Shown here: positions 10,697 through 61,523 of the stretch, piece by piece
Layout: every line of letters begins with the position of its first letter
Position numbering within the stretch: position 1 is the first letter of the stretch
NCBI GenBank assembly: GCA_965248475.1
Contig: OZ252106.1
Location: 1,583,640 to 1,647,639 of the forward strand
Origin: Dehalococcoidia bacterium
GTDB taxonomy: Bacteria; Chloroflexota; Dehalococcoidia; Lucifugimonadales; G965248475
DNA length: 64,000 nt
Reading direction: 5' to 3'
The notes under the pieces: generated by a model
The model's database searches: none
What the model was told of the DNA's origin: nothing
What the model saw: only the letters and a program-made list of their open reading frames with translations
Translations under genes and position numbers: made by a program

Positions 10697-12499
10697 CTAC
10701 GTCGGCTCCATGCCTATGTCGCAGTCCCTGGCGGCCAGGATGAGTCCGATGTGAGTAAAAGCCTGGGGGAAGTTACCCAGCGCCACACCGGTGTCGGTGT
10801 CAATCATTTCCGAGAACAGGCCCAGGTGGTTGGCGTAGCCAATGATCTCCCAGAAGAGTCGGCTGGCCTCGTCCATCTCCCCCATCCAGCTGATCACTTG
10901 GACCAGCCAGAAACCGCACAGAGTGAAGGCGCCCTCATTGCCGGTCAGGCCATCGTCCGTCTCATCCGTCAGGTAGCGTCTTAGCAGCGGCTCGGGGCCC
11001 AGCTCCTGCCGGATGCGCTGTACCGTGGAAACGACGCGAGGGTCGTCTATGGGCAGGAAGCCCATGAGGGGTATGAGCAGGTTGCTGGCGTCCATAGCGT
11101 CGGTATCGTAGTGCTGGACAAATGCCTGCTTGCGGTCGCTCCAGCCCAGTTGGAGCACCTCCTCCTTGATGGCGTGGGCAGTGCGTTTCCACCCCTCTCT
11201 CTCCGGCCCAGCGCGGCCGGTCGATTCGGCTAGGGCCACGGCGCGGTCCAGGGCGACCCAGCACGTGACCTTGGAGTAAACGAAGTGGTACGGGCCGCCA
11301 CGGACCTCCCAGATGCCGCTGTCGGGCTCGTGCCAGGTGGACTGGGCCAGGTTCGCCAGGGTGCGCAGCGGCTCCCACTGGTCATCGCTGATTGGCGTTC
11401 CGTTGCTGAAGAGCAGATGGGCGCTGGCCAGCACCTCGCCGTATATGTCGTGCTGGGACTGGCGATGCGCTCCGTTGCCGATGCGCACAGGCCTGGAGCC
11501 CAGGTAGCCCTCCAGGTGGACCAGCTCCTCTTCTTCCAGGTCATCTGCCCCATCCACGCGATACATGATCCCTATATCTTTGCCATAGGTGGCACACACG
11601 TGACCAAGCCACTGGAAGAAAAACATGGCCTCATCCCGGTGGCCCAGGCTCAGCAGGGCCTCAACTGTAAAGGCGGCGTCCCGCAGCCAGGTGTACCGGT
11701 AGTCCCAGTTACGCACGCCACCGATCTCTTCTGGCAGCGATGTGGTAGGGGCGGCGGCGATACCGCCTGTGGAGCGATGAGTAAGCAGATGCAGCGCCAG
11801 GTAGGACCGCGCCACCTGGGAGCGCCAGGGGCCCTCACAGTCCACCTCCTCACCCTTTATGCGCCAGTAATCAATGGTCCGTTCAAGCCGGTCTTGAGGC
11901 GATAGCCCGTCCTGCTCCATAGTTGTGGTGGCGTCGGTGTAGGAGAGGACGAACAGCGCCTCATCTCCTTCCCTCAAGGAGAACGTGCCACGGGCCTGGC
12001 CGCCAGCGGCGGCCAGGGGCACAGGGGAGTCCAGTGTCAGCCGGATGTCACCGTCCCTCCAGACAACCGTTCCCCCATCATGGGACAGCTGGGCTTCAGC
12101 GCGCGCATAGTCCGGTCTGGGTGCGTACATAACCCGGAGGTTGGCGCTGCCCTTCTCACACCGCACGCGCCGGATGATCTGATGCAGCTCTTCCAGCACG
12201 CCGTCCGGCCCCTGGTACAAGGGCATGCAGTCAGTGACTGTGGCGATGCCCTCCTCGGTCTCGAACCTGGTCTCCAGGACGTTCGTGTCGCCCAGGTAGC
12301 GCTGGGTACGGGTGTAGCGGCCGTCCGGGTTGATGGCGAAGCGTCCGCCCTTATCCGCGTCCAGAATGGCAGCGAACACGCTGGGCGAGTCAAAGCGGGG
12401 CGGACAAAACCAGTCGATGGAGCCGTCCATGCCCACCAGGGCTGCCGTGCGCCGGTTGCCGATGAGCCCGTAGTCGCCAATGGGTTTGTAGCGGCTCAC
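10697..12499 (-). CDS. Glycoside hydrolase family 15 protein (glucoamylase/trehalase-like)
   Basis: 600 aa. N-terminus YKPIGDYGLIGNRRTAALVGMDGSIDWFCPPRFDSPSVFAAILD is typical of bacterial GH15. Confidence 0.9.
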   Translation of the reverse strand: MSRYKPIGDYGLIGNRRTAALVGMDGSIDWFCPPRFDSPSVFAAILDADKGGRFAINPDGRYTRTQRYLGDTNVLETRFETEEGIATVTDCMPLYQGPDGVLEELHQIIRRVRCEKGSANLRVMYAPRPDYARAEAQLSHDGGTVVWRDGDIRLTLDSPVPLAAAGGQARGTFSLREGDEALFVLSYTDATTTMEQDGLSPQDRLERTIDYWRIKGEEVDCEGPWRSQVARSYLALHLLTHRSTGGIAAAPTTSLPEEIGGVRNWDYRYTWLRDAAFTVEALLSLGHRDEAMFFFQWLGHVCATYGKDIGIMYRVDGADDLEEEELVHLEGYLGSRPVRIGNGAHRQSQHDIYGEVLASAHLLFSNGTPISDDQWEPLRTLANLAQSTWHEPDSGIWEVRGGPYHFVYSKVTCWVALDRAVALAESTGRAGPEREGWKRTAHAIKEEVLQLGWSDRKQAFVQHYDTDAMDASNLLIPLMGFLPIDDPRVVSTVQRIRQELGPEPLLRRYLTDETDDGLTGNEGAFTLCGFWLVQVISWMGEMDEASRLFWEIIGYANHLGLFSEMIDTDTGVALGNFPQAFTHIGLILAARDCDIGMEPT

Positions 12500-13233
12500 G
12501 CCCTTACCCCGGTGATCTGGCTTGCCGCCGCGGTAGTGAGGAACCAGTGCGCCGCACCCGACGCAGGGCGTACCCGGCCAGCGGGAAGCGGCGATGAGCC
12601 GAAGGCCGGTGTGATGATGCGGCCTATTGCATCCGCCTTGGATCTGTCCGTGGCCAGGAAAACGACGACCCTGGCTGCGTTGATCAGCGGTAGGGTGAAT
12701 GTGACGCGATGGACCTGAAGGTGGGGCACCCAGTTGGCCATCACCAGTTGTTGCGCGTTTTCCAGGGCATCGGTGCCAGGGAACAGGGATGCGGTATGGC
12801 CGTCCTCTCCCACGCCCAGCAGCACCAAGTCAAATGCTGGCAGGTCTGTGTCGAACTGCCGGCGCATCAGCGATTCGTACTGCTCGGCGCCGGCGCCGGG
12901 GGGCATCTCGCCCCTGATGCGATGTACCTGGTCTTCCGGCACGGGCACGCTGTCCAGCAAAGCTTCCCTGGCCATTCGGTAGTTGCTGTCGGGATGGTCA
13001 GGTGGAACGCACCGCTCGTCACCCCAGAACAGGTGCCAGCAGTCCCACGGGGCGTTTTCTGCAAATGGAGACAATGCCAGGGTTTGGTACAGCAGACGTG
13101 GTGTGGAACCTCCAGCCAGGGCTATGGTGAAACGTCCCCGGACCTCCACGCACTCACTGGCCAGGTTGACGACCAGCTTTGCCGCTTCGCGCGCGGCCTC
13201 CTCCGGCGTGGGCAGGATATGGACATCAGGCAT
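12496..13233 (-). CDS. pgl: 6-phosphogluconolactonase
   Basis: IALAGGSTP and [15 protein letters not shown] motifs. SD GAGGGAG before ATG 13233. Overlaps the zwf stop by 8 nt and the GH15 start by 4 nt. Confidence 0.9.
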
Positions 13234-14698
13234 CTTCTCCCTCGTGCCCACCGCACACTCGCAGCCACTCCCGTCCGTCCTGCGCCAGGAGCGCATCGGC
13301 AGCGTCCGGGCCCCAGGAGCCTGTTTCGTAGGTCTCAACGGCGAGGGTACTCTCCCGCGCCTGAAGGAGAGGGTCAACGATGCGCCACGCCTCTTCGATA
13401 TGGTCGCTGCGTATGAAGAGAGAGGCATCGCCCGCCAGGGCATCCTGGAGCAGTCGCTCGTACGCCTCCGGGATCTCCTGATCCTGGAAGGCGGACTCAT
13501 AGTGGAAGGACAGATCGGCGGAGCGCATGGCCATGCCCTGGTCGGGGACCTTGGCCTGGAAGGTCAGATGAACACCTTCGTCAGGCTGGAGGCACAGGGA
13601 GAGAGCGTTGGGAGTCAGCTCCTGGCCCGGCTCCAGAGCGAACATCAAATGGGGCGGATGTTGGAACTGGATGATGATCTCCGAGGCCTTGTCAGCCATG
13701 GCCTTGCCTGTACGCAGGTAGAATGGCACATCCCGCCAACGCCAGTTGTCCACGTACAGGCGTGCCGCAGCGTACGTGGGCGTGGTGGAGGCGGGGGCGA
13801 CGCCGTTCCCGTCTAGGTAGCCGCGATACTGGCCGAGCACGGCGTTTCTGGCCGCCTCCTCTGGCGACCACCGCCGTATGGCCTCGAGCACGTCAACCTT
13901 GCGACTCCGCAGAGAGTCCGCGTCCATGGTGCTGGGCGGCTCCATGGCTACCAGGGTTAGCAGCTGGAGCAGGTGGTTCTGCACCATGTCCCGGACCACT
14001 CCCGACTGGTCGTAGTAATCGGCCCGTTCGCCCACCGTAACTTCCTCAGCCACCGTGATCTGGACGTTGTCCACGTAGTTGCGGTTCCACAGCGGCTCAA
14101 AGATGGCGTTGGCGAACCGGAAGACCAGAAGGTTCTGTACCGTCTCCTTGCCCAGGTAATGGTCAATCCTCAACACCTGGTCCTCCGTGAACACACGGTG
14201 GACGGCCCGGTTCAACGCCTGGGCGGACCTCAGGTCGCGGCCAAAGGGCTTCTCTATGACCACGCGGCGCCATCCCCCTTCTTCGTCTGACAGTCCCGAG
14301 GCGTCCAGGTTCCGGATGGCGGTCTCGTACAGATGTGGAGCAACGGACATATAGAACAGCCGGTTTGCCGGCAGCAGGCCGCCCTCCAGCTCCTCCAGCC
14401 GCTGTCGAAGCGAGGCCATCTGCTCGGGCTTGCTCAGGTCACCCCTGACGTAGTACAGGTCCCGGGCGAAAATATTCCACTCATCCTGGCGCGCGGCCAG
14501 CTCCCCGAACTCTCGCGCGCCATCCCACATTAGGTCGCGGAACTGGTCGTCGGAGTAGCCGGAGCGGGAGAATCCCACGATGCGCAGCCCTTCCGGCAGG
14601 CGATCTTTGCAGCGCAGGTGGAACAGGGCTGGCACCAGTTTGCGCTGGGCCAGGTCGCCTGTAGCGCCGAAGATGACGATGGTGGTGTTTTCTGCCAT
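13226..14698 (-). CDS. zwf: Glucose-6-phosphate dehydrogenase
   Basis: [17 protein letters not shown] motif and RIDHYLGKE active site. ATG 14698 overlaps the gnd stop (TAATG). The track ORF extends upstream spuriously. Confidence 0.93.
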
Positions 14699-15606
14699 TA
14701 CTCGGCGCTTCTTACGGCGTGGCCGCCGAACCTGTTGCGCATGGACGCCAGAAGCCTGGCCCCGAAGGGTCGGTCCTGACGGGAGCGGAACCTTGCCTGG
14801 AGGGACAGGGTAATCACAGGCGCGGGCACGCCCAGCTCCAACGACTCCTGTACCGTCCAACGGCCCTCGCCGGAGTCGTCCACGTAGGCCTGAACAGCGT
14901 TCAGGCCAGGGTCATCTTCCAGTGCATCGGCAGTCAGGTCCAGGAGCCAGGAGCGCACTACGCTACCGTGCTGCCAGATCCGGGATATCCGGCCCAGATC
15001 CAGGCCGAACTCCTCCTTGGCCTGCATCAGTTCGAACCCTTCCGCGTAGGCTTGCATCATCCCATATTCAATGCCGTTGTGTATCATTTTTACGAAGTGG
15101 CCTGCGCCGGCTGGGCCGACGTACCCGTACCCTTTGTCGGGTGCGGGAGCAAGCGTTTGAAAGATAGGTTCCAGTCGGCGGAAGGTCGCTTCGTCGCCGC
15201 CCACCATCAGGCTGTAGCCCTCCGTGAGACCCCAGATGCCGCCGCTGGTGCCGGCGTCCAGGAACAGTATATCTCGCTTCTTCAGCGCGGCGGCCCTTCG
15301 GACACCGTCTTTGTAGTAAGAGTTGCCGCCGTCTATGATTGCATCGCCCGGGACAAGGAGGTCAGCCAGGTCGTTGATGGTGCTTTCGGTAGCTTCACCG
15401 GCGGACACCATGACCCATATCGCTCGAGGCGTGGCAAGCTGCTCCACCACCCCTGCAAGGGAGGCAGCTCCCGACGCTCCCTGCTGTGCCGCCGCCTGTA
15501 CAGCCTCCGCGCGTGGGTCGTAGGCCACCACGCGGTGCCCTCCCTTGAGCAGCCGTTCCACCATGTTGCCACCCATGCGGCCCAGCCCGATCATCCCTAG
15601 CTCCAT
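14698..15606 (-). CDS. gnd: 6-phosphogluconate dehydrogenase, decarboxylating (short ~300-aa form)
   Basis: [16 protein letters not shown] Rossmann N-terminus plus the Gnd-like C-terminal domain. Sits in an operon with zwf and pgl. Confidence 0.9.
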
Positions 15607-15702
15607 ATGCGTACCTCCTGTGCAGATTGTCTAGCTGGGTGCTGACGGTGGCGCTTGCCCGCGCCTAAATGAACAGATTGTAGAGGCCAATGTTGGCGGC
15701 GG

Positions 15703-16506
15703 TTATTCTAGGTGCTGCTTCATCCCGGGAGTTCGCGCCGTCTCGGCACACGTTTCCGAGTGGGCTGTCAGATTGTGCTCATTGATGCGGCGCTTCACTG
15801 TCTTCAGAAGCTCTTCAGGTGTATGGACGATCCAGACATGATCCAGCACTTGGCTGGAGTGGAGGCTTGCCTGGGTAAAGGGCGTGGCGACGGCGATAAC
15901 GTTCATCCCGGCGGAGACGGCCGCCTGCACGCCATTGGGCGAGTCCTCAAGCACCAAGCATTCGACAGGGGTTACTCGCAGCGTGGCGGCCGCCAGTTCG
16001 TATATCTCCGGGGCCGGTTTGGGCTGCTCCACATCTTCACGAGTAAACAGTGCATCCAGAGACGCTTCCAGGTCCAGAGCGCGCAGGACGTGCATGACCT
16101 CTTTGCGATAGGACATGGTGGCGAGCGCGGTCCGACATGAGGTATCTCTGGCCATCCGAAGCAGCTGGATGGTATGAGGCCACTGGTTGTCCCGCAGCAC
16201 CTGGGGGTCGGCTACCATCTTATCGTAGATCTTCTTGCGCATGGTGCTGAGCACCTGTGCGGGTTCGGAAGCGCCGTATTCGACCATAAGAGGATGCAGG
16301 TCTTTCTCCAGCTTAAGGCTTTCCATGACGTGGCGTGAGGCGATGTCCCTGGAAGCACCGACTATTCCCCGGTACGCCTCTATGGCCCTGGGGTCCGGCC
16401 CCGGCAGGCCCAGAAGGTCCTGAGCAGCGATAGCGTACGATTCGGCCTTCAGTCTTTCAGACTGGACCAGCGTGCCGTCCAGGTCGAAGATGATGACCCT
16501 GATCAT
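15703..16506 (-). CDS. HAD-superfamily hydrolase (beta-phosphoglucomutase-like subfamily IA)
   Basis: Motif I FDLDGTLV, motif IV LEDSPNGVQAA. Confidence 0.85.
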   Translation of the reverse strand: MIRVIIFDLDGTLVQSERLKAESYAIAAQDLLGLPGPDPRAIEAYRGIVGASRDIASRHVMESLKLEKDLHPLMVEYGASEPAQVLSTMRKKIYDKMVADPQVLRDNQWPHTIQLLRMARDTSCRTALATMSYRKEVMHVLRALDLEASLDALFTREDVEQPKPAPEIYELAAATLRVTPVECLVLEDSPNGVQAAVSAGMNVIAVATPFTQASLHSSQVLDHVWIVHTPEELLKTVKRRINEHNLTAHSETCAETARTPGMKQHLE

Positions 16507-16531
16507 GGTAGGTTGCGTGCGTCCGTGGCTT

Positions 16532-16874
16532 TCAGGCCGCCGCTCCTTTAGTCTCGACCGCCTGAGAGCTCGCCAGCGCTCGCAGGCGCTCCAGGATCAT
16601 CGGCGTTGTAGGCCAGCCCCTTAGCCCCTCCTCCGTCTGGAACAGCCGACAGCTGAACCCATACTAGTCCGCGTCCTCGGGAAACAGGTCGTTGCCGGAG
16701 ACCCGGAGGGTCGGGGGGGCCTTGAAACCGCAGCTCGTCGGCATTGGCTTGGTCCTTCACCTCGATCAGGGAGACCTCCATGTCCAAGCCGTGGAGGGTA
16801 AGGGCCTGCCTCAGGTTCTCAAGGGCCTGGTGCCAGGACGGACATCCGTCAAAGTAGAGAAGTTCTAAAACCAT
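16532..16874 (-). pseudogene. Thioredoxin-fold small protein, disrupted (G7 frameshift + in-frame TAG)
   Basis: AGGAGG-6nt-ATG 16874. MVLELLYFDGCPSWHQALENL...ELRFQG, then the frame breaks at the G7 run 16713..16719. The shifted frame gives PPTLRVSGNDLFPEDAD-TAG(16666..16664)-YGFSCRLFQTEEGLRGWPT... Confidence 0.6.
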
Positions 16875-17005
16875 AATATTCCTCCTGTCAGCCAACTCCT
16901 GCGGCCAGCGCGCGCAAGCCCGATGCGTAGTCCTGTCCAAGCTGTATCCTGGCAACGCGACGGTCCAGTTGCTGCAAGACCCGGAGGTCGCCCAAGGCCT
17001 GGGCA

Positions 17006-18145
17006 TCAGCCAGGACGGACGTAGGCCAGAAGTTGTGCCTTTTTCTCCTGGATGTTGATCAGAAGCTTGTCGAAGGAGTCGGCGAATGCCTTGAGGCCGT
17101 CGCTCAGGAGGCCATCGGTGACATGCCGCATATCTATACCGGCTGCCTCTAGCGAGTCCAGGGTGGTCCGGGCCACTGTCGTGTCCCGCTCCAGGGTTGT
17201 GTTGGCTTGGCCGTGCTCCAGGAACGCGGTTAGTGTGTCCGGGGGCACGGTGTTGACCGTATCCGGCCCGATGAGAGACTCTAGGTAGAGTACATCGCTG
17301 TAGGCAGGGTTCTTGGTGCCTGTGCTGGCCCACAGCGGCCTCTGTACCCTGGCGCCCCCAGCCTTGAGGCCGGTGAACCGCTGGCTGTCGAAGGCATCCC
17401 TGAACGCCCGGTACGCAAGTTTGGCGTTGGAGATGGCCGCCTTGCCCATGAGAGACGCAGCCTCGTTCGAGCCCTGGCTCGCCTTCCCATCCAGCATGGC
17501 GTCCACGGCGGTATCCACCCGGCTGAGGAAGAAGGAGGCGACGGATGCCACTCCGGCGAGGTCACCGCCGCCACGGGCGAGGTCCTCCAGGCCAGCTATG
17601 TAGGCCTCCATCACCTGCTTGTGTGTGTCCAGGGAGAAGATGAGTGTGACGTTGACGTTGATCCCTTGGCCGATCAGGGCGTGCACGGCAGGGATGCCCT
17701 CGGCGGTGGCGGGCACTTTGATCATTACGTTGGGGCGGTCCAACGCAGCGTATAGACGCCTGGCCTCCGCGACGGTGCCTTCCGTATCGTGCGCAAGAGT
17801 TGGACCAACCTCCAGGCAGGCGTAGCCGTCGGCACCGCCGGTGCGGTCGTATATCGGTCGGAGAAGGTCGGAGGCCCAGCGAATGTCCTCCAAAACCAGC
17901 GCCTCGTAGGTCTCCTTTGCGGTCTCCGGTGTGCTCGGGCCATCCTGGACCAGGGACAGCAGGGCCTGGTCGTAGTCGGTGCTTCCGGCGATGGCCTTCT
18001 CGAAGATCGTGGGGTTGGATGTCAGGCCGGTAACACCCTGCTCTATGAGGCGCTTTAGCTCTCCGGAGGTCAGGAGACCGCGACTAACGCTGTCGTACCA
18101 GATGGACTGTCCCAGTCTCTGGGTCTGCTGGACGGGGTTGTTCAT
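17006..18145 (-). CDS. tal: Transaldolase (long actinobacterial-type)
   Basis: [11 protein letters not shown]...[13 protein letters not shown] motifs. 4-nt overlap with the tkt stop. Confidence 0.93.
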
Positions 18146-20160
18146 GCTACCTTCTCCTGTACTAGCTGCGCGGCCTGGTTGGCCATGTGGCGGGCGGTCA
18201 ACCCGAACTGCTGATAAAGGGTCTCATAGGGTGCCGAGGCACCGAAGTGGGAGATGCCCATGGCAACGCCGTCCAGGCCGACGTACCGTTCCCAGCCAAG
18301 AGGGGTAGCGGCCTCTATGGAGACCCTGGCCCTGAGATCAGGCGGTAGGACGGCAGTGCGGTAATCCAGGGGCTGAGCGTCGAACAACTCCCAGGAGGGC
18401 ATGGATACGACACGCGCGGCGATACCGCGGCCCTCAAGGGCCTTGCCCGCTTCAAGCGCCGTGTGAGTTTCTGAGCCGGTACCTATGAGGATGACATCCG
18501 GTGTGGAGGAGGCGTCCCATAGTATGTAGCCGCCTTTTTGGACACCGGTTGCGCTGGCGAGGGTAGACCGGTCCAGCACAGGCAGGTTCTGGCGGCTGAG
18601 CACCAGGGCTGCGGGGCCGGACCACCGTTCCAGGGCCACCTTCCACGCCTCTACTATCTCGGTGGCGTCGGCGGGACGGAGCACCACCAGGTTGGGGACT
18701 GACCTGAGACCCAGTAGTTGCTCTATCGGCTGATGAGTCGGGCCGTCCTCTCCCAGGCCGATGGAGTCATGGGTAAAGATGTACACCACCCGCTGCTCCG
18801 TGAGGGCCGCCAGTCGCATGGCAGGGCGCATGTAGTCGGAGAAGATGAGGAAGGTCGCGGTGTATGGGATGATCCCGCCGTGCAGAGCCATCCCGTTGGC
18901 TATGGCGCCCATAGCGTGCTCCCTGACGCCGAAATGCATGTTGTGACCGCAGTACTCCTCAAAGCCGTAGTGCCCGTGGTCCTTGAGGAGGGTCTTGGTA
19001 GAGGGCGCCAGGTCCGCCGAGCCGCCGGTGAAGGCGTGAATTCGTGATGCGATGGTATTCATGGCCAGTCCCGAGGCCTCTCTTGTAGCGATGGGCTTAT
19101 CGCCGTCGTTGAAGAGGCGATCCAGGTCGGTGGTCCAACCTTCGGGCAGATCACCGCGCAGGTCCTCCTCAAGCTGGGTCGCCTCGTCCGGATACGCCTG
19201 ACGATAGGCCTGCAGCACAACCTCCCACTCCTGTTGACGCTGCTTGCCCAGCTCCAGGGCCTGACGGAAATGGGCGAGGGCTTCATGCGGAACTGCGAAT
19301 GGCTCGGGGTATGGCCACTCCAGCTGCTCCTTAGTAAGGCGCACCTCCTCTTCGCCCAGGGCCTCGCCGTGGGCTGAGGCTGTGCCGGCCTTATTGGGGC
19401 TGCCGTAGCCGATGGGGGTCCGGCAGATGATGAGGCTGGGGCGGTCAGCGGCACTCTGGGCCATGCGTATGACAGAGTCCACCGAATCAGGGTCCATGCC
19501 GTCAATGGGGCCCACGACGTGCCAGCCGTAGGCCTGGAACCGCTGAGCTACGTTTTCTGCGAAGGCTATATCTGTATTGCCCTCGATGGAGATGTCGTCG
19601 TCGTCGTAGAGGTATATGAGCTTGCCCAATCGTAGGGTACCCGCCAGAGAGGCCGACTCGGCTGCTACCCCTTCCTGAATGTCACCGTCGGAGACGATAG
19701 CGTAGGTGTAGTGGCTGATTATCTCGTGGTCGGGGCGGTTGTAGTGGTCCGCCAGCCACCGCTCGGCGATTGCCATGCCCACGCCGTGGGCGAACCCCTG
19801 CCCCAGGGGCCCAGTTGTCATCTCCACGCCAGCTGTCAGGCGGTACTCAGGGTGGCCTGGCGTTTTGCTCTCCCACTGGCGGAGCCGCTTGAGTTCATCC
19901 AGCGGCAGGTCATAGCCGGTGAGATAAAGGATAGCATAGAGTAAGGTATAGGCATGACCGGGAGATAAAATGAACCTGTCTCTGTCCGGCCAGTGGGGGT
20001 CGCCAGGGTTGTGAGTGAGGAACCGATCCCAGAGGACGTAGGCCATGGCGGCAGCGCCCATGGGAGTGCCTGGGTGGCCTGAGCCGGCCTGCCGCACAGC
20101 ATCCACCGCCAAGAACCGAATTGTGTTGACACAGAGGCCTTCAATGTCAGTAGTGGTCAC
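18142..20160 (-). CDS. tkt: Transketolase
   Basis: 672 aa. GSGHPG, ThDP-binding region and [18 protein letters not shown] signature. SD GGAGG before GTG 20160. Confidence 0.95.
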
Positions 20161-20204
20161 GCATCCTCCAGCACTTCATCTACCGAGGTCATATATCTAT
20201 TGTA

Positions 20205-20236
20205 CCAGCCACCCCGACCTCGGTCGGGGTGGCTGG
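20205..20236 (-). terminator. Perfect 14-bp hairpin between the grx-like gene and tkt
   Basis: CCAGCCACCCCGAC-ctcg-GTCGGGGTGGCTGG. It lies downstream of the 20266 stop on the minus strand and has no T-tract. The core CCCGAC..GTCGGG recurs in the repeat family. Confidence 0.4.
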
Positions 20237-20265
20237 TGTCACCGCCGATAAAGATTCCGTGAAAT

Positions 20266-20526
20266 CTACGTACGCTGCAGGTAGGGCTCCAGCTTTCTGG
20301 CGAGTTCGGAATCGGCTGGTTCAACCAGGACGGAACCGTCCGGGAACAGGATGGTCGGTATGATCCCCATACCGCTGTTGACCTGTTTGACGTACTCCTG
20401 GGCCTCCCTGTCGTCGTCAACATCTATCCAACTGAACGGAATTTCATACCGCTCAAGGAGCCGCTTGGCTCGCACGCAGTCGTTACACCAGTCCCCTCCA
20501 TACACGAGGATGTTCTGACTATTCAT
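20266..20526 (-). CDS. Glutaredoxin/NrdH-like small redoxin
   Basis: 86 aa. ILVYGGDWCNDCVRAKRLL (CxxC) and the thioredoxin-fold motif IPTILFPDGS. Confidence 0.8.
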   Translation of the reverse strand: MNSQNILVYGGDWCNDCVRAKRLLERYEIPFSWIDVDDDREAQEYVKQVNSGMGIIPTILFPDGSVLVEPADSELARKLEPYLQRT

Positions 20527-21039
20527 TGGTATCAGCTCCTGTCTACACCCTTAGATGCCCGTGATGACATCGGGGTACATTTCATGGAAACGGAACATCT
20601 GGGTCAATAATATTTGCGCCCGTGAGCACTTCAGTTCCGAGGAAGTCAGGTATGCAATTGTTCTCCGGGGAGATGTCGTGGATCAACTGCGGGTTTCGGC
20701 CCGGATGATGCTGATGACGATAATGACTCCGCGACTGGAAAATGACGATCCGACTATCTCAGATGTCGAAGATTGCGTTGCTCTCCACGACAGCATCGTA
20801 TCACCCCCCCCTCCGTTGCGAATTTGCCAGAAGGCCAGGAACGGCAAATAGCAGTTTGCAATTGCATCTCGCTCGTTTCGTGGGCATCTAAACAGAGTGC
20901 GACGTGGTTTGGGCAACCGAGCACACCTTGACCGCTGTGTATTAGCGAAGCACAGCAATTCACCAGGCGGCACTGCTTTTAGACTATCGTCGGGAGCGTG
21001 TACCGGCCCGTCACCGCCGACATTCAGGAGGAGAAGAAA

Positions 21040-21555
21040 TTGAGCCAGCTGACAGAGTTCCGCACTCAGAAGGACAAATTCTTCGCGAACGACCACCACT
21101 CCCCCCTTCGACAGCAGCAGAGAGATACCTTCAAAGGTCTGGCCTACTTCGGAGAAGACTCACTACTGCACCTAGAGGTGCAGGTCGAGGAGTATTCAGA
21201 GAATCAGCTTGTGGAGATCGCCACCAGCACCGGTGACGTCCAGACTTACGAGCGATGGGGAAGGTTCACGTTCGAAGTCTAGGGAGAGGCGGCAGAGCTG
21301 ACGGTCTACAGAACTGGCCACAGCCTTTTCCTGCCCTTTGCCGATGCAACAAACGGCGCGGACACCTATGCGATGGGTCGCTACGTCGAACCCGAATCAA
21401 TAAGTGGGAACAAGATACTGGTGGACTTTAACCTGGCGTACAACCCTTACTGCGCCTATAACGAAGACTGGAGTTGCCCAATTCCGCCAGCCGAAAACCG
21501 TGTCAGTGTGCCAATTGGTGCTGGGGAGAAGGCCTTCGGGAGCTCCGCCCACTAG
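21040..21555 (+). pseudogene. DUF1684 protein interrupted by one in-frame TAG
   Basis: AGGAGGAG + TTG 21040. Track ORFs 20998..21282 and 21373..21555 share one frame. ..GRFTFEV-TAG(21280..21282)-GEAAELTVYRTGHSLFLPFADATNGADTY..VDFNLAYNPYCAYNEDWSCP is one continuous DUF1684 domain. Confidence 0.75.
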
Positions 21556-21796
21556 GCACCGACTCAGGACGCGGCGGGTTGGCCGACAGGCCGAAATCGA
21601 AGCCGTGGGTAACGCTGGCTGCGGTGCCTTGCCTGATGGCCAGGAGTGGCAATGCTGTGACTCAATCCATCGCGGCAGCGGGTCAGCAGAGAGACAAGGA
21701 GAAACAAGGGAGCCTTTGCACTGACTCTGGCACAGTGATGAACACGGCCTCAGAGAAATTCTCACAATAATTCAGATTGATCGTAGGAGCGTACTT

Positions 21797-22105
21797 CTAG
21801 CTGGCACCCTGCAACATGGGCGAGGACATCGGAGTCACTTCGATCTTCGCAACGAACTCGGCGGCTTCACTGGCTATGGCCTGCCAGGCGGGCGAGCTGG
21901 AAAAGGCTTCGTCCTTGGCTTTCGCGTCTTCAGCACTCTCATACGTGCGAATCCAGATGAACTCGGTACTGGCCTCGTTGATCCAGGGACCCAGGATCTG
22001 GTGACCAACCTGCTCAGCTACAGGCCGAGCCTTGCTGTTGAACCACTCGACCCAGGCGTCCATCTTGCCCCGATTGACAGTGTAAACTCTCAGTTGTGCG
22101 TACAT
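21797..22105 (-). CDS. NIPSNAP family protein
   Basis: 102 aa. MYAQLRVYTVNRGKMDAWVEWF...ILGPW...FIWIRTYES matches the NIPSNAP pattern. Confidence 0.75.
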   Translation of the reverse strand: MYAQLRVYTVNRGKMDAWVEWFNSKARPVAEQVGHQILGPWINEASTEFIWIRTYESAEDAKAKDEAFSSSPAWQAIASEAAEFVAKIEVTPMSSPMLQGAS

Positions 22106-22394
22106 GTTTCCCCTCCTTGAAGCAGTCGGCCTTTATTACGATAGCGAGTCTGGGTGGGTAGACACTGGGTCTGAAACTGATGATTGCCCGACAGGCACAG
22201 AGAGCGGGCCTGCTAAGCTTCGACGAGCCATGTAGTAGGGCGTTCTAGAACTATATGTCCCGTTCAAGGAACTGGAGTGCCGGTATCCATAGCTTGGGTA
22301 GTCGGCCATAACCCTCTCCCATACGGGGCATTGTAGCGTGAACTGAAGGCGAGTCAAACTGAACCTGCCAGAATGCCACGAATGGAAAGTAAAG

Positions 22395-22592
22395 CTAGGA
22401 CATCGTGAGATCGGATCTGACCGATTCATGGGACACGCCATGATACCTGGCGATTGTCCGTAGGCTCTGACCCTCTTCCCGGGCCCGTTTTATGGCGACG
22501 ATATGGGCTGGCCAGAGTCTCTTGTTGGAGGCGACGCGGACGGGGGGACGCCACAGAGGGATCAAATCAGCTACGAAATAGCCCTCTTGCAC
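22395..22592 (-). other. Short HTH ORF, possible remnant of a recombinase/transposase DNA-binding domain
   Basis: IVAIKRAREEGQSLRTIARYHGVSHESVRSDL resembles Hin/IS630-type HTH. No catalytic domain follows. The surrounding region has a lower GC content. Confidence 0.3.
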
Positions 22593-22731
22593 ATCGGAGT
22601 TGGAGTCCCAAGCAGGTCGCCATAGGCGTATTGACAGTTGGCCTAGGAATCTAGACTTCGGGAATTCCCGACTAGAGTTCCCAGGTAGTGCCTGAATTAT
22701 CCCGCATGCTTGAACCCGGAAGATTCCATTG

Positions 22732-25272
<2,541 letters not shown>

Positions 25273-27002: not shown

Positions 27003-27650
27003 TTACCCCCCGGCCTGGATGCAGTGGGCGCGGCGGATGGCATAGAAGGAGATACCCGCGGCGAGTAGCTCGGGGATGACGAGCCAGTAGAGCATGATGG
27101 CCAATGCTACGCTCCCTGATGTCACCAGGATTGCGCCAAGCACAGGGGCCTTCCGCATGAACCAGAATCCACCCGCAATGGCAATCAGACTTAGTGGGAG
27201 TAAGGAATAAAAGACGTAGGTCCAGTCTGGCAGATATGCGAAGTCAGCCTGGCGCCGGTACTCAATCTCTGCTATGACGGTGCGAATAAGCAATGCTACC
27301 AGTAGCATCGTCGCCATGACTCCCGTAACGACGGTCATGGTCTTGTAGTCCCTTGTCTGTGTCATGGCGCCCTCCTCCGTGTCTACGTCTCGCGTACGGA
27401 TGTGGGCCAGCCGCCACATCAGGTCGTCCGGGAGACCCAGCAGCCAACGGAGCAACAGGTGCGTCGCCAGTGGAAGGCCATTCCATTGATTCGTCTCTGC
27501 TTCCTGCGCCTGCTCCCAGAGATCTGCGTCGATCTCCTCACGGCGGGAGTCGCGGAGGCCCGATGGAAGGCCCGCGGTGTACACGCGTACCCAGGCGCGC
27601 ACGAAGCTAACGGAGCGGGGCATGAGCCCGGTGGCACTATGTCTAAACAT
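27003..27650 (-). CDS. Membrane sensor-like protein, paralog B of 28402..29061
   Basis: The N-terminal ~75 aa (GLMPRSVSFVRAWVRVYTAGLPSGLRDSRREEIDADLWEQAQEAE...LLLRWLLGLPDDLMWRLAHIR) are near-identical to paralog A. Four divergent TM helices follow. Confidence 0.7.
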   Translation of the reverse strand: MFRHSATGLMPRSVSFVRAWVRVYTAGLPSGLRDSRREEIDADLWEQAQEAETNQWNGLPLATHLLLRWLLGLPDDLMWRLAHIRTRDVDTEEGAMTQTRDYKTMTVVTGVMATMLLVALLIRTVIAEIEYRRQADFAYLPDWTYVFYSLLPLSLIAIAGGFWFMRKAPVLGAILVTSGSVALAIMLYWLVIPELLAAGISFYAIRRAHCIQAGG

Positions 27651-28045
27651 CGTCCGGGTCTCCCGGATGCGTTCCCGCTCTAGTCTCGCTCACGTTAGTC
27701 TGTCCGTCTCCGTCCGAGTCAAGCGGCTCCACTTCTCTCAGCGCGTTACGAAGCAACGCTATCTTCTCCGCGTCACTATCAGGGTCTATCCCTGTGGGAC
27801 CTCGCCTCTAACCGCGATGCCGTAGGGGTTCAGTGAGCGACGGCCGCTATGGCAGACAGAACAGTCATCAAGCGGCGTATCCTAGGTCTCGTAAACATCG
27901 TTGAATGTCGTCATTGCTAGCGTCGAGTGACCATCGAAGATCCCACAACCTGCGGTAATCAGGGCCATAGCAACGGTCGCTAGGGCCAAGGCGATCATAT
28001 TGGCATGTCCGAGACCATGGACAGTAATGGTTGGGAGAGGTGTCA

Positions 28046-28405
28046 TCAAACTTGGGCCACCTTGCGCCTCCGTTTGACGACGCCCGCTACCGCAACAGGG
28101 ATGGCGATGGCTGGCACGATGCCGGTCCACCAAAAACAGGCTGCCACAGGCAGTGCACCTGCCGCTAGTAGAGCACCACCATTGCCCGACTGTGAGCGGG
28201 CAGAGCCCCAGGCGCCTGCTGACAACGCAGCTCCACCGATAAGCAAGACAACGGCAACTCCCAGTTCCATCCCTCGTCCGCCGACATCTACGGGTATGAA
28301 ACCTGCTAGATACAGGACGCTGCCGGCGAAACTGACAAGTGCCAAGAGGGTCGCCGCACCAAGAAAGACCACCAAAGTTACTCTCGATCCGTTCATCTGC
28401 ATCAT
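28046..28405 (-). CDS. Small 4-TM membrane protein
   Basis: The ATGA start/stop overlap with the upstream gene at 28402..28405 suggests translational coupling. Hydrophobic Gly/Ala-rich TM segments and a KRRRK tail. Confidence 0.6.
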   Translation of the reverse strand: MMQMNGSRVTLVVFLGAATLLALVSFAGSVLYLAGFIPVDVGGRGMELGVAVVLLIGGAALSAGAWGSARSQSGNGGALLAAGALPVAACFWWTGIVPAIAIPVAVAGVVKRRRKVAQV

Positions 28406-29061
28406 CCTGCTTCGCCCTCATCCGCGACAAAGAAATCTGTTGCTCCAACAGTCCGACGCTTGCTCGTCTTGTAGGCCTGGAAAAGTCCCAATAGCACCAT
28501 GAACCCGCCAATGATCGGAAGGATAACCGTCCATTGCCACGCGAAGCCGAACACGACCGCGCCCATCATCAGTGTGATGACGCCAGCCTGCGGCCTGCGA
28601 GCGAGTATGAGAGCGCCCCACATCACCGCGAGCCCGTCTACCAACAAAATCGCTGCGCCCAGGACTGGATCAGCCTCATTCATAGTCGGAGGGTGTCCCA
28701 GCACAGTGCCTGCGCTGCCGACAAGGCTGAGGAGGCCTATGATCACGGCCAGGCTGCGGAAAGCCCATCCTGCCGCTCGTGTTCTCACGCCCTCCTCCGT
28801 GTGTACGTCTCTGGCACGGATGTGTGCCAGCCGCCATATGAGGTCGTCAGGGAGACCCAGCAGCCAGCGGAGCAGCAGGTGCGTCGCCAGCGGAGGGCCA
28901 TCCCTTTGCACCGTCTCCGCTTCCTGCGATTGATCCCAGAAGTCGGCGTCGATTTCCTCGCGACGGGAGTCGCGAAGGCCTGACGGAAGACCGGCGGTAT
29001 AAAGGCGTACCCAAGCGCGCACGAAACCAACAGAGCGGGGCATGAGCCCAGTGCTACTCAT
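28402..29061 (-). CDS. Membrane sensor-like protein, paralog A (PadR-associated)
   Basis: ATG 29061 aligns with the start of paralog B. The same frame stays open upstream through PadR (see findings). The N-terminal cytoplasmic helical domain + 4 TM resembles the DUF1700-type partner of PadR regulators. Confidence 0.7.
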   Translation of the reverse strand: MSSTGLMPRSVGFVRAWVRLYTAGLPSGLRDSRREEIDADFWDQSQEAETVQRDGPPLATHLLLRWLLGLPDDLIWRLAHIRARDVHTEEGVRTRAAGWAFRSLAVIIGLLSLVGSAGTVLGHPPTMNEADPVLGAAILLVDGLAVMWGALILARRPQAGVITLMMGAVVFGFAWQWTVILPIIGGFMVLLGLFQAYKTSKRRTVGATDFFVADEGEAG

Positions 29062-29202
29062 GGGATGCCTCGCTCGGGTCGCAGAGTCGGCGTGGCGCGC
29101 GCGCTCAGTGTGGTGCTTGGCGAGTGCTGTTTCGCCGGCCATTGTCACCCGATAGAAGCGACGCCGGGGCCGGCCTTCATCAGCCGCGACCTGCGGGTCC
29201 TC

Positions 29203-29415
29203 TCAGTAGCTGTCTAGGAAGCCCACCTTCTCCAGTCGGGCCAGGGCCTTGTAAAGGGTGCCGTAGGCGGTGAGCAGCCGTGCATCGGCTCGGTCCCGCA
29301 TCTCCTTAGCGAGTAGGAAGCCGTGGGCGGCTTCGAGGCCTCTCTTCCGCAGGTCGAGGCCAGCCTCCATAATGGATGCTTCGAGTGGTACGAGAGCACC
29401 TGCTTTTCTCCGCAT
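29203..29415 (-). CDS. PadR-family transcriptional regulator, ends at a TGA on the conserved Trp position
   Basis: wHTH HGFLLAKEMRD...YGTLYKALARLEKVGFLDSY-TGA. The frame continues in-frame as EDPQVAADEGRPRRRFYRVTMAGETAL, the missing PadR C-terminal helix. Confidence 0.8.
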   Translation of the reverse strand: MRRKAGALVPLEASIMEAGLDLRKRGLEAAHGFLLAKEMRDRADARLLTAYGTLYKALARLEKVGFLDSY

Positions 29416-29421
29416 GGCGGA

Positions 29422-29451
29422 ATAATAGGAAGATATAGTCCCATTTGTCAA
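29422..29451 (-). promoter_or_regulatory. Sigma-70-type promoter giving a leaderless padR mRNA
   Basis: TTGACA (29451..29446), 18-nt spacer, TATTAT (29427..29422). ATG 29415 starts 6 nt after the -10 box and no SD is present. Confidence 0.55.
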
Positions 29452-46505: not shown

Positions 46506-47545
46506 CTATGTGGTCAAACCCCGACCCGGCAGTCCGGCATCCTTGAGCAAGGCTCCACGCTCCCGGCCTATCTTCCTGAGCTCCTTTGCGGCATCCCTCG
46601 ACATCTCACGCAGCTCCGAAGCAGGCCGTCCGCTCTCCAGCCACTCCCTCAACTCGTCCGCATCAAACCTGGGCAGGGACTCAGGAGAGATAGCGATGGT
46701 CGGAGGTGCGACCTGGCTCGGCACGGCGGGCAGAGGCCGGGGCCGGTTCTGATTGGGTCGCTTGAAATAGTCTCGCGGCCAGGCCAGCACCAGGTCAACA
46801 TGACCGTCCTTTTCCACCACGAGCACCGGGGTGTCCTCTCTGAGCCCGGACAGGTCTATCCTGTGCCCGCCGACGATCACCCTGGTCTCATCGTCCGTTT
46901 GAAACTCGACCATCGTGTCATCCTTGCGCACTATGATGAGGCTCACATCGGTAGCCGTCTGCACCCTGCCAGCGGTCAGATCGATAGTAATGACCTGGCC
47001 ATCTCCACCCAGAAGTTCGAATTCCGCGTGCAGCAGGTTCCCGGGCAGGTTATTCCCGATGATACGCCGCAGGTAGTTGGGCAACGGGTCCCGCTGGCGT
47101 TGCAGGGAATCGTTCGGCTGGGGACGAGGCCGTTCAGCCAGCGTGGCCTCCACAACCAACTCATCCCCGTCGCGCAGTATGGTCAAGGTCACGACGGTTC
47201 CAGGAGGCAGTTCCCGGATCGTCTGCAACCCTGCCTTGCGGTCTCCATCGGCTCGCCGTCTATAGCCGCCAGAACGTCACCCTGCTGGAGGTCTGCCTCA
47301 TCAGCGGGGCTGTCATCCTGCACACCCGCGATGACTACGCCGGACGTGTACTCGATCTCCAGGCGCTCGGCGATATTCTCGTTCAGGTTCACGACTCTTA
47401 CGCCCAGCCAACCGTGTTCGGTCTGAGCCTCTTCTTGTTGGACGGCGGGGGCTGAAGGAGCGGCGCTCCCTCCGGCGGCGGCCACCCCGACCAGGGAGAC
47501 CAGGCCCAGGACTCCAATCAGTAGGACTGCAACAAATCGTTTCAT
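46506..47545 (-). pseudogene. Secreted PDZ-domain protein, frameshifted inside the PDZ
   Basis: Signal peptide MKRFVAVLLIGVLGLVSLVGVAAA. The PDZ GWLGVRVV..SGVVIAGV..DLQQGDVLAAIDGEPMETA breaks at 47229..47231 and resumes as LQTIRELPPGTVVTLTILRDG in track ORF 46506..47228. Confidence 0.7.
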
Positions 47546-50082: not shown

Positions 50083-51011
50083 TCACTGAGTGAGGTTGGG
50101 GTATCTCTCACCCGTATCAGGCAACACCGTGACAACCACCTTGCCCTCACCCAGGCGCTGCGCAACCTGGAGTGCCGCCACTACGTTGGCTCCCGAAGAG
50201 ATACCAACCAGCAGGCCTATCTCGCGGCTCAACCGTAGGGTGGTGTCTATGGCTTCCTGAGTGGTGACGGTAACCACCTCGTCAACGATGTCTCGATCCA
50301 GAATGGACGGCACGAAGTCGGCACCGATACCGACTATGCCGTGGTCTCCCGCGCTGCCTCCATTGAGCAGCGGTGACGTGTCAGGCTCCACAGCTACCAC
50401 CAGCACCGAGTCGTTGGCGGCCTTCGGCGCCCGTCCCACGCCCGTCAGCGTCCCGCCTGTGCCGACACCGGCCACAAAGGCGTCAACCCGGCCTTGAGTC
50501 GCATCCAGTATCTCCCTGCCGTGCCCTCCTGGTGGGCTTTAGCATTGGCGGGATTGTTGAACTGATCCAACATCAGCAGACCATTATTGGAATCCAGCAT
50601 CCGTCTTGCCGCCAGGTTTGATCCATCCACACCCATGTCTGCAGGTGTCAGGTGGACCGTGGCCCCGAACCGGGCGACCAACCGCCGCCGCTCCAGGGGT
50701 ACGCCCTCCGGCATCACAATGGAGACCTGGTAGCCCTTGGCGGCACCCACTACAGCCAGGGCAACGCCCATGTTGCCTCCCGTCGATTCGATTAGGCCCA
50801 TGCCGGGCTTGAGCACGCCCCGTGCCTCAGCGTCCTCCACCATTGCCAGGGCCGCGCGGTCCTTCACGCTTCCACCGGGGTTCAGGTTCTCCAACTTGGC
50901 CAGGAGCTGCGCCGACCCAGGCGGTTCCAGGGCACGCAGCCGCACCAGGGGTGTGTTCCCTATGAGAGCAAGAATGCTATCGCTTAGAGCGTTGTCCAAG
51001 GTGCTCGCCAA
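50083..51011 (-). pseudogene. PLP-dependent cysteine synthase family protein (CysK/CysM-like), frameshifted
   Basis: GNTPLVRL, PGGSVKDRAA (PLP Lys). ..NPANAKAHQEGTA breaks at 50514..50516. The shifted frame gives (G)EILDATQGRVDAFVAGVGTGGTLTGVGR, joining track ORF 50083..50475. SD GGGAGG + TTG 51011. Confidence 0.8.
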
Positions 51012-60452: not shown

Positions 60453-60723
60453 CAAAAAACCCGGCTCTACTCAGGCCGGGTATTCACCAGTAATCGGCAG
60501 CTCGTGGGGCGTTGACGAAAAGCTACCGGGGCGTCCTCTGTATGGCGCAGAGTAGAACTCACGCTACCCAGGTAGGTCTCCTGACTCACGGATCGTCACC
60601 CGCCGACGCCTTCCCATCCCGACAGCCAGGACAGTGGCATGATGCCAACAGGCTCCCCGTTTACAGTGGCGCAACCGTGGCGGACTCACACCGCCTTCCC
60701 TTTTCAGCCGGTACAGCACCTGG
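60453..60723 (-). promoter_or_regulatory. Cobalamin (B12) riboswitch with intrinsic terminator
   Basis: P1 CCCAGGU..ACCUGGG. Core AAAAGGGAAGGCGGUGUGAGUCCGCCACGGUUGCGCCACUGUAAACGGGGAG. GCCACUG..GGGAAGGCG. B12 box GAGUCAGGAGACCUACC. Terminator CCCGGC-9nt-GCCGGGUUUUUU at 60479..60453. Confidence 0.9.
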
Positions 60724-60765
60724 GAGCTTCCAATATTCGATTGTTAAGGAATCTCGGATCGGGGC

Positions 60766-60795
60766 CACTATATGCGAGCCAGGCGAGGCGTGTCA
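60766..60795 (-). promoter_or_regulatory. Sigma-70-type promoter upstream of the riboswitch
   Basis: TTGACA (60795..60790), 18-nt spacer, TATAGT (60771..60766). Confidence 0.6.
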
Positions 60796-60813
60796 ACCGC
60801 GGACCTGCCGCTT

Positions 60814-61271
60814 TCACAACCCCTTTGTCTGACGCCACTCGATAACATGCAGGGTATGCTCCGGGTACTGGCCGTAGGTATCGAGCCTCAGGCGACGCCG
60901 AAAGCGAGTCTCGGTGACGAAATGGTGCGCCGGTACCGTGGCGAGGAAGGTCACCAGCCGTGCGTGTGTCTCAGAGGACCGACTTTGAACATCTGCCAGC
61001 GACATCTCCCAGTAACGGTGCCACCGGCCTTCGTTGAAGGCGTCGATCCCGCCGTAGGTGACGTACCGGACCGTACGTCTGGCCTGCATGATGACGGGTA
61101 GGCTGCAAGCGCCTCCTCCTCCCACGTGGCGACATGGCCCAGCAGGTCTTTGACGGACCAGTCGCCAACCACGCCAGGCTCTTGAAGGGCCGTCGCAGAC
61201 AGGCCGCGGGAGGCCAGACCAAAGGCCTGCCATCCGGTGTCAATGGGTCTCAGAAGCTGGTCTAGGTCCAT
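60814..61271 (-). pseudogene. DinB/ClbS-like four-helix-bundle protein, frameshifted
   Basis: GDWSVKDLLGHVATWEEEALAA (track ORF 60951..61271) continues as LPVIMQARR...IDAFNEGRW...YPEHTLHVIEWRQ (track ORF 60814..61233) after a 1-nt shift near 61101. Confidence 0.7.
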
Positions 61272-61306
61272 GATGCGCCGCTATCGTGAATTAGGTACGT
61301 TTAAGC

Positions 61307-61375
61307 TGCCCGGCCTGGGTTCGAACCAGGGACTTCAGCTTCAAAGGCTGACGTGCTACCGCTACACTACCGGGC
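61307..61375 (-). tRNA. tRNA-Gln (anticodon UUG)
   Basis: Hand-folded cloverleaf: acceptor GCCCGGU/GCCGGGC, anticodon stem UCAGC/GCUGA with loop CUUUGAA, T-arm CCUGG-UUCGAAC-CCAGG. CCA is not encoded. TATAAT at 61402..61397 lies upstream. Confidence 0.85.
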
Positions 61376-61523
61376 AACGCATATCCAACCAGAGTCATTA
61401 TAGCTGATTGCTATGGGTGAGCCATCTGCAGCCCTCAGCGGTTGCTAACGGCGGGCGCATGAGCTACATTGTCGCTTGACCCCAAAACTGATACCACACC
61501 CCATATGGACAGAGGAGGCTCCG

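Follow-up and report, generated by a model that had tools for sequence, protein, structure and literature searches.

The window analysed here, a stretch of 64,000 nucleotides (nt) on contig OZ252106.1 of a Dehalococcoidia bacterium (assembly GCA_965248475.1), carries on its minus strand a gene for a regulator of the PadR family, directly followed by a gene for a membrane protein, P0001, whose N-terminal part resembles the helix-turn-helix (HTH)-associated alpha-helical signalling (HAAS) domain. As written, the PadR gene carries two lesions that are private to this sequence: a change from TGG to TGA at the codon of a conserved tryptophan, Trp71, and a deletion of 2 nt in a GC run. The locus consists of the following features, in which L-numbers denote related loci and P-numbers proteins:

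29422..29451, minus strand: sigma-70-type promoter with TTGACA (29451..29446), an 18-nt spacer and TATTAT (29427..29422), scored 11/12 in a promoter scan
29428..29441, minus strand: conserved spacer element GGACTATATCTTCC, a quasi-palindrome centred on ATAT
29206..29415, minus strand: PadR codons 1-70, the helices of the winged helix-turn-helix (wHTH), ending ..LEKVGFLDSY
29203..29205, minus strand: TGA at the Trp71 codon of PadR, which is TGG in every relative
29095..29202, minus strand: PadR codons 72-107, the second wing strand and C-terminal helix, EDPQVAADEGRPRRRFYRVTMAGETALAKHHTERAR, intact
29095..29104, minus strand: (GC)5 run; DNA alignments show 2 nt more at this place in L001-L004 and L050
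29058..29102, minus strand: ancestral PadR tail ARATPTLRPERGIP with its stop, readable in the other frame; the TGA at 29060..29058 overlaps the ATG at 29061..29059
28402..29061, minus strand: membrane protein P0001, 219 amino acids (aa), with an N-terminal three-helix HAAS-like domain, GLP at 69-71 and four predicted transmembrane (TM) helices
28046..28405, minus strand: hydrophobic protein of 119 aa, its ATG overlapping the P0001 stop (ATGATG), without a Pfam family
27003..27650, minus strand: paralogous HAAS-like membrane protein P0004, 215 aa, identified by protein search and alignment

The PadR open reading frame (ORF) starts at ATG 29415 (MRRKAG...) and proceeds to LARLEKVGFLDSY before it reaches the TGA at 29205..29203, and the codons that follow directly in the same frame read EDPQVAADEGRPRRRFYRVTMAGETAL. 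Past this TGA the frame stays open until the TGA at 28404..28402, which gives 338 codons from ATG 29415 without another stop, as the preliminary description of this DNA had reported. That description had also held that the PadR domain resumes beyond the stop, and the profile search bears this out: with a tryptophan substituted for the stop, the translation matches the Pfam PadR family (PF03551, gathering cut-off 27 bits) with 44.1 bits across aa 29-99, which corresponds to positions 9-74 of the 75 in the profile. The truncated product of 70 aa scores 26.5 bits, under the gathering score, and the protein with both lesions repaired, 119 aa long, scores 47.2 bits over profile positions 9-75 of 75. 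L001 and L050 encode intact PadR proteins that share 88-92% identity with the window PadR, and over codons 72-107 each of them differs from it by only one or two residues. We agree that termination at the TGA would strip PadR of its C-terminal helix, and the wing would be lost with it.

The residue on which the stop falls is invariant, with W at this position in 12/12 aligned PadR-containing homologs, and it aligns with the tryptophan of LmrR (..ISSYWGDES..) and of other solved PadR proteins. Of the PadR motif that combines this wing tryptophan with a basic/Y-x-(L/V/I)-T part, the latter is intact in the window as RPRRRFYRVT, and the former is the TGA codon. Membership in the paralogous family TIGR03433 (padR_acidobact, NCBIfam) was ruled out by a score of 44.9 bits against a cut-off of 101.8. 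In a tblastn search this was the only PadR of the window; neither a second copy nor the remnant of one turned up ahead of the paralogous membrane gene.

Protein databases hold no interrupted genes, and we therefore scanned two DNA collections, using a pattern that allows both TGG and TGA at the tryptophan codon (TGR GAR GAY CCN CAR NNN GCN GCN GAY GAR G). The codon is TGG in 12/12 genome contigs (Dehalococcoidia, SAR202 Chloroflexi, Acidimicrobiia and metagenome-assembled genomes of Acidobacteriota) and in 28/28 metagenome contigs. It is also TGG in all five loci of the DNA alignment (L001-L004, L006) and in L050, the closest relative. TGA at Trp71 thus occurs in 0/46 related loci, that is, in 0/40 found by the pattern scan and in 0/6 closer orthologs, so that the earlier claims of a stop on the conserved PadR tryptophan and of a single G-to-A change both stand, and the change is private to the window sequence. 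An earlier scan of the genome contigs, with the read-through protein as query, had yielded no confirmed relative; in a protein search the same query picked up P0001, its paralog P0004 and many homologs. The protein search with the repaired PadR returned 1438 homologs at E ≤ 1e-20, and among the best 120 of these the majority are 118-121 aa long. The two closest homologs, P0029 (92% identity) and P0030 (91%), read ...DSFWEDPQ..., with F-W at positions 70-71, and possess the canonical tail.

The second lesion lies about 100 nt (33 codons) downstream of the TGA, where the window reads GAGC--GCGCGCGCC and L001-L004 and L050 read GAGCGTGCGCGCGCC, and it shifts the frame of PadR at about codon 104. 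Because of this 2-nt frameshift the normal PadR stop is lost in the window, and because of the same private deletion, which alone is sufficient, the PadR frame enters the frame of the membrane gene. The ancestral tail, ending ..ATPTLRPERGIP before its stop, is still legible in the other frame; the counterpart in L002 and L004 ends ..RATPSLRPERGIP, likewise followed by the stop.

The arrangement in the relatives shows what the window locus would look like without these changes. L001-L005 encode a stand-alone PadR of 119 aa, ending ...LRPERGIP, and then, in a different frame, a membrane protein of 210-212 aa; the two genes overlap by 4 nt, in which the PadR TGA and the ATG or GTG start codon interlock as ATGA or GTGA. 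Throughout the close relatives, the PadR stop comes 46-50 codons past the tryptophan. In nearly all of 40 further loci PadR is directly upstream of a membrane gene, again with the 4-nt overlap. Their PadR stop lies 44-50 codons past the tryptophan, almost always as xATGA or xGTGA, and the product of the gene after PadR opens with a W-x-x-L-Y-T-x-G-L-P ... G-x-P-x-D-x-x-W-R domain. Judged from these sequences, the continuous frame of 338 codons is an accident of the second lesion and not a fusion device. The proposal of a PadR-sensor fusion frame therefore stands in so far as the frame as written does enter the membrane gene, but not as a meaningful design, since the relatives encode PadR on its own. 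It had also been considered that orthologs might terminate naturally at this point, with a separate gene downstream; the separate gene is present, but at the Trp71 position the orthologs have TGG and do not terminate.

Disrupted modules were encountered among the relatives as well. L006 carries indels in PadR, and its protein P0002, a candidate for a close natural fusion, was discounted in view of its own +2 (G run) and +1 (C run) indels and 3x coverage. In L050 (6495..8215), a frameshift near codon 57 interrupts the HAAS-type gene, which is called as 99 aa and is followed by a transposase pair of the IS3 family (HTH_Tnp_1, rve), so that the module is disrupted here too.

Upstream of PadR, the TATTAT hexamer (the -10 element) ends 6 nt ahead of ATG 29415, which implies that the PadR mRNA would be leaderless. 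Most of about 40 related loci (L010-L049), from Dehalococcoidia, Acidimicrobiia and Acidobacteriota, share this promoter layout, with the consensus TTGACA, a spacer containing GGAC(T/G)ATATCTTCC or GCAGATATCTGC, TATTnT, and the ATG 6-7 nt further on. The spacer element of the window is conserved among loci of Dehalococcoidia and Acidimicrobiia; the second of these spacer variants, a perfect palindrome, occupies the same place in the spacer in a second clade. We infer that the spacer element is a putative operator through which PadR may repress its own gene. Where gene calls extend too far upstream, the conserved promoter DNA shows up in translation as a spurious 'ISSY' peptide.

The membrane gene has its own start, ATG 29061, with GAGG 6 nt upstream. 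The HAAS domain has been described as consisting of three helices with a conserved GxP in the third, and as always accompanying a PadR-like wHTH while being joined to a range of membrane modules, FtsX/MacB permeases among them (PMC11237479). An AlphaFold2 model of P0001 predicts helices at 9-21, 27-51 and 58-85, with GLP 69-71 in the third, followed by the four TM helices (mean pLDDT 68; 71-87 over residues 11-80), so that the predicted structure has both the three helices and the GxP of HAAS. Across 18 homologs the G69 of this GxP never varies, and most of them also have P71. Further invariant residues of the N-terminal domain in the membrane partners are W17, Y21, T22, G24, L25, R30, R33, R34, E36, D40 and W42 and, towards the third helix and within it, R65, L67, D73, W76 and R77. 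Pfam and NCBIfam scans gave no match of P0001 or P0004 to HAAS (PF22564), DUF1700, DUF1048 or the permease-prefix families, and the equivalent region of the homolog P0022 scores 15.6 bits against PF22564 (E = 0.021), below the cut-off of 27 bits. A Foldseek search of the P0001 model against the PDB gave nothing below E = 0.6.

In the Acidobacteriota loci L021 and L032, the gene after PadR carries a HAAS-like N-terminal domain of about 90 aa on a duplicated FtsX/MacB permease of the ADOP type, which matches TIGR03434 over residues 94-892 as well as MacB_PCD and FtsX. At the level of sequence, this shared HAAS-like domain links the 4-TM proteins of Chloroflexi to the acidobacterial PadR-ADOP pairs. 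Within the window, P0001 is close to the relatives' partner genes over its N-terminal 90 aa only, and P0004 is the closest full-length match to them, including the C-terminal ..FYAIRRAxxIQAGG. This copy lies 1.4 kb downstream and has no PadR of its own, and the P0001/P0004 locus has apparently undergone a rearrangement or a duplication. The 119-aa hydrophobic protein is assigned to the same operon as P0001 because its ATG overlaps the preceding stop. A further ORF of 54 aa (MTPLPTITVHGLGHANMIALALATVAMALITAGCG..., 27882..28046, minus strand) starts 1 nt inside the stop of this 119-aa protein. Its product, with a stretch resembling a signal peptide and a lipobox-like ITAGC, may be a small lipoprotein of the same operon.

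With moderate confidence, we interpret the PadR gene as written as a recent loss-of-function allele of an ordinary module of PadR and HAAS-type membrane sensor. We favour recent loss of function because two lesions in one gene of 360 nt are more in keeping with a dead gene than with two errors made independently. The G-to-A change agrees with the GC-to-AT bias among the private changes of this lineage, and the broken module copies in L050 and L006 were also counted in favour of a real allele. In such an allele, ribosomes would terminate at the UGA and release a fragment of 70 aa that lacks the wing and the C-terminal helix and that, by analogy with solved PadR structures, would be unable to bind the operator. 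The operon, released from repression, would be transcribed constitutively. The membrane protein would still be made from its own ATG via the GAGG, and the normal termination-reinitiation coupling from PadR to the membrane gene would be lost.

Several observations weigh against this interpretation. In a consensus sequence, real lesions and consensus errors look alike. With L050 and three outgroups used to polarise the changes, 9 synonymous and 3 non-synonymous changes in PadR (R24K, F70Y and the stop) fall on the terminal branch leading to the window. This indicates that purifying selection acted on PadR until very recently, so that a second real lesion would have had little time to arise. A relaxed-selection test on the private substitutions of this branch likewise found no excess of non-synonymous changes, which marks the lesions as recent and does not separate mutation from error. 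F70Y, only 4 nt from the stop, could be a local miscall. Moreover, single-base homopolymer indels split at least three further genes of the 64 kb, a pattern that looks like assembly error.

The alternative to a real allele is a consensus or assembly error, which we consider a serious one, if somewhat short of probable. Here the organism would possess an intact PadR of 119 aa with TGG and ATGA, and the TGA, F70Y and the 2-nt deletion would be miscalls of a long-read or low-coverage metagenome. Indels of 1 nt at short homopolymers interrupt three other genes of the window, and repairing one base in each either recovers the Pfam domain or lengthens its match:

50445..51011 and 50083..50475, minus strand: split PALP/cysteine-synthase-like PLP-dependent enzyme; adding one G near 50516 (GGG run) gives a PALP match over 3-295 of 295 with 244 bits
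47189..47545 and 46506..47228, minus strand: split PDZ-domain protein; adding one C near 47240 (CC) gives a PDZ_2 match over 2-79 of 80
22732..23052 (region to 23215), minus strand: flavin reductase; removing one C from the C7 run at 23042..23048 extends the Flavin_Reduct match from 33-128 to 15-128 of 153

The PALP and PDZ indels sit in otherwise intact ORFs, and the flavin reductase stays truncated at both ends after its repair. Together, the three broken genes suggest either consensus errors or an unusual burst of fresh pseudogenes, and because they carry 1-nt homopolymer frameshifts it becomes more plausible that the reads would show TGG in PadR. An error would also fit a PadR gene that shows no other decay, with its 9 synonymous changes set against 2 ordinary non-synonymous ones, and that has an undamaged promoter and operator-like element and undamaged genes downstream. 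The lesions are clustered within about 110 nt, and the metagenome assemblies behind related contigs (such as ctg..._5.87x and contig_4) are of long-read style and state a low coverage. However, a G-to-A substitution and a 2-nt deletion differ in type from the 1-nt homopolymer indels elsewhere, and ten large neighbouring genes have full-length domain matches. At about one indel per 16-20 kb, the chance of a second independent error in a gene of 360 nt would be ~2%, unless errors cluster.

Leaky or programmed read-through of the UGA is, by comparison with known cases, conceivable in mechanism and very unlikely at this locus. It would have tRNA-Trp insert tryptophan and thereby generate a low level of a membrane-tethered PadR-HAAS fusion, recognizable by the junction sequences ..LDSYWEDPQ.. 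and ..ERARHADSATRARHPMSS.., beside the separately initiated membrane protein. The open frame of 338 codons and the invariant residue that an inserted tryptophan would recreate speak for it, as does the background decoding of UGA by tRNA-Trp(CCA) on record in E. coli, which is enhanced by 4-bp anticodon-stem variants (PMC13092985). Distant relatives moreover contain natural single-chain PadR-HAAS-membrane proteins, namely P0009, of 411 aa and identical in two independent assemblies (L008, L009; 3001..4236), and P0022, of 294 aa, in one assembly (L007, 3001..3885). Against read-through, the stop occurs in the window sequence alone among the 46 loci, the fusion frame results from the private 2-nt deletion, with the ancestral stop persisting in the other frame, and the resulting linker of 13 residues is frameshifted sequence without a homolog. 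The 96 nt around and after the stop contain no stimulatory structure (minimum free energy -33.8 versus a shuffle mean of -34.5 kcal/mol, z = 0.20), and the TGG-bearing relatives have a nearly identical sequence downstream of the Trp71 codon. Rfam searches at gathering thresholds across the window detected a cobalamin riboswitch and one tRNA only, with nothing near the stop; this sole tRNA is a tRNA-Gln. Furthermore, TGA is a common and efficient terminator in the window, where it ends 50/105 stop-to-stop ORFs of at least 150 aa, including those for LigA (NAD-dependent DNA ligase), transketolase, transaldolase and glucose-6-phosphate dehydrogenase (G6PD), all with end-to-end Pfam coverage. The idea that suppression yields a PadR-sensor fusion, as raised in the preliminary description, is thus unsupported. 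We also regard it as highly improbable that low-level decoding by tRNA-Trp together with the deletion has created a fresh, leaky gene-fusion intermediate.

Genome-wide reassignment of UGA to Trp or Gly (tables 4, 25), or selenocysteine at the Trp71 codon, can draw on this one UGA at a tryptophan position and is effectively refuted by the same TGA-terminated long ORFs with their intact LigA, transketolase, transaldolase and G6PD, by the 39/40 orthologous PadR genes that stop at TGA and, as regards selenocysteine, by homologs that all have Trp and neither Cys nor Sec, by the lack of an Rfam family near the stop and by an unremarkable fold.

Some features elsewhere in the window deserve mention. 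An intact cluster at 10697..20160 (minus strand) encodes transketolase, transaldolase, a HAD hydrolase, 6-phosphogluconate dehydrogenase (6PGD), G6PD, 6-phosphogluconolactonase and a GH15 glycoside hydrolase. It resembles the pentose-phosphate set (6PGD, G6PD, OpcA, GH15) that flanks the gene for the PadR fusion P0022 in L007. The adjoining stretch, 20157..23052 (minus strand), is composed of small ORFs of 88-138 aa with a third-position GC of 0.51-0.62 versus 0.7-0.8 elsewhere. Among their products are a NIPSNAP protein and the fragment of the flavin reductase, and the stretch may have been acquired or be decaying. A spurious ORF call at 60512..60832 overlaps the cobalamin riboswitch (60554..60737, minus strand, 114 bits), near which lies the tRNA-Gln(UUG) at 61305..61376 (minus strand).

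The regulator at this locus is very common, with more than 1400 close homologs, and belongs to a known kind of system; a disrupted copy of it, whether through recent mutation or consensus error, has little value as a discovery. It does teach caution: a frame that stays open through two genes and a stop codon at a conserved tryptophan mimic recoding, and it took the orthologs to reveal two private lesions, in a window with other gene-breaking indels. If the allele is real, it would entail constitutive expression of a membrane operon controlled by PadR/HAAS in this Dehalococcoidia-like organism. Useful by-products for studies of HAAS-PadR systems are the putatively leaderless promoter with its operator-like spacer element, found in three phyla, and the rare natural fusions.

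Set beside known cases, the window shares some traits with each. Gene fragmentation by single-base homopolymer indels is a published signature of long-read assembly errors (PMC9262707, PMC12007338); several window genes split in this way are restored by a one-base repair, but the PadR stop is a substitution and the PadR deletion removes 2 nt from a dinucleotide repeat. As in UGA read-through by tRNA-Trp (PMC13092985), near-cognate misreading of a UGA at a tryptophan codon would restore the native residue, whereas the window stop comes without conservation, without a stimulatory element and, within the window, without any sign of a suppressor or a tRNA-Trp with the 4-bp stem variant. The natural fusions P0009 and P0022 have the same domain order as the hypothetical read-through product of the window, and they establish that a membrane-tethered PadR is a viable design. 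Unlike that product, they have no internal stop; they are only 41-43% identical and are rare, with two or three among more than 1400 homologs, which suggests occasional gene fusion in a family that usually consists of two overlapping genes.

Compared with short one-domain PadR proteins such as LmrR (PDB 3F8B), the window gene stands apart through its stop at codon 71 and its frameshift near codon 104; the repaired protein aligns with LmrR and other solved PadR proteins over residues 20-107, wing tryptophan included, and has, with 119 aa, a length typical of the short subfamily. A further parallel is the HAAS-PadR dyad (PMC11237479). The window protein lacks a match to PF22564, and our assignment rests on architecture and motif and not on a significant profile match; on this basis the locus works like such a dyad and probably is one. 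As in the dyad, PadR lies immediately upstream of the membrane protein and is translationally coupled to it, and the C-terminal modules vary, ranging from four TM helices in the window to the ADOP FtsX/MacB permease of the relatives in the Acidobacteriota.

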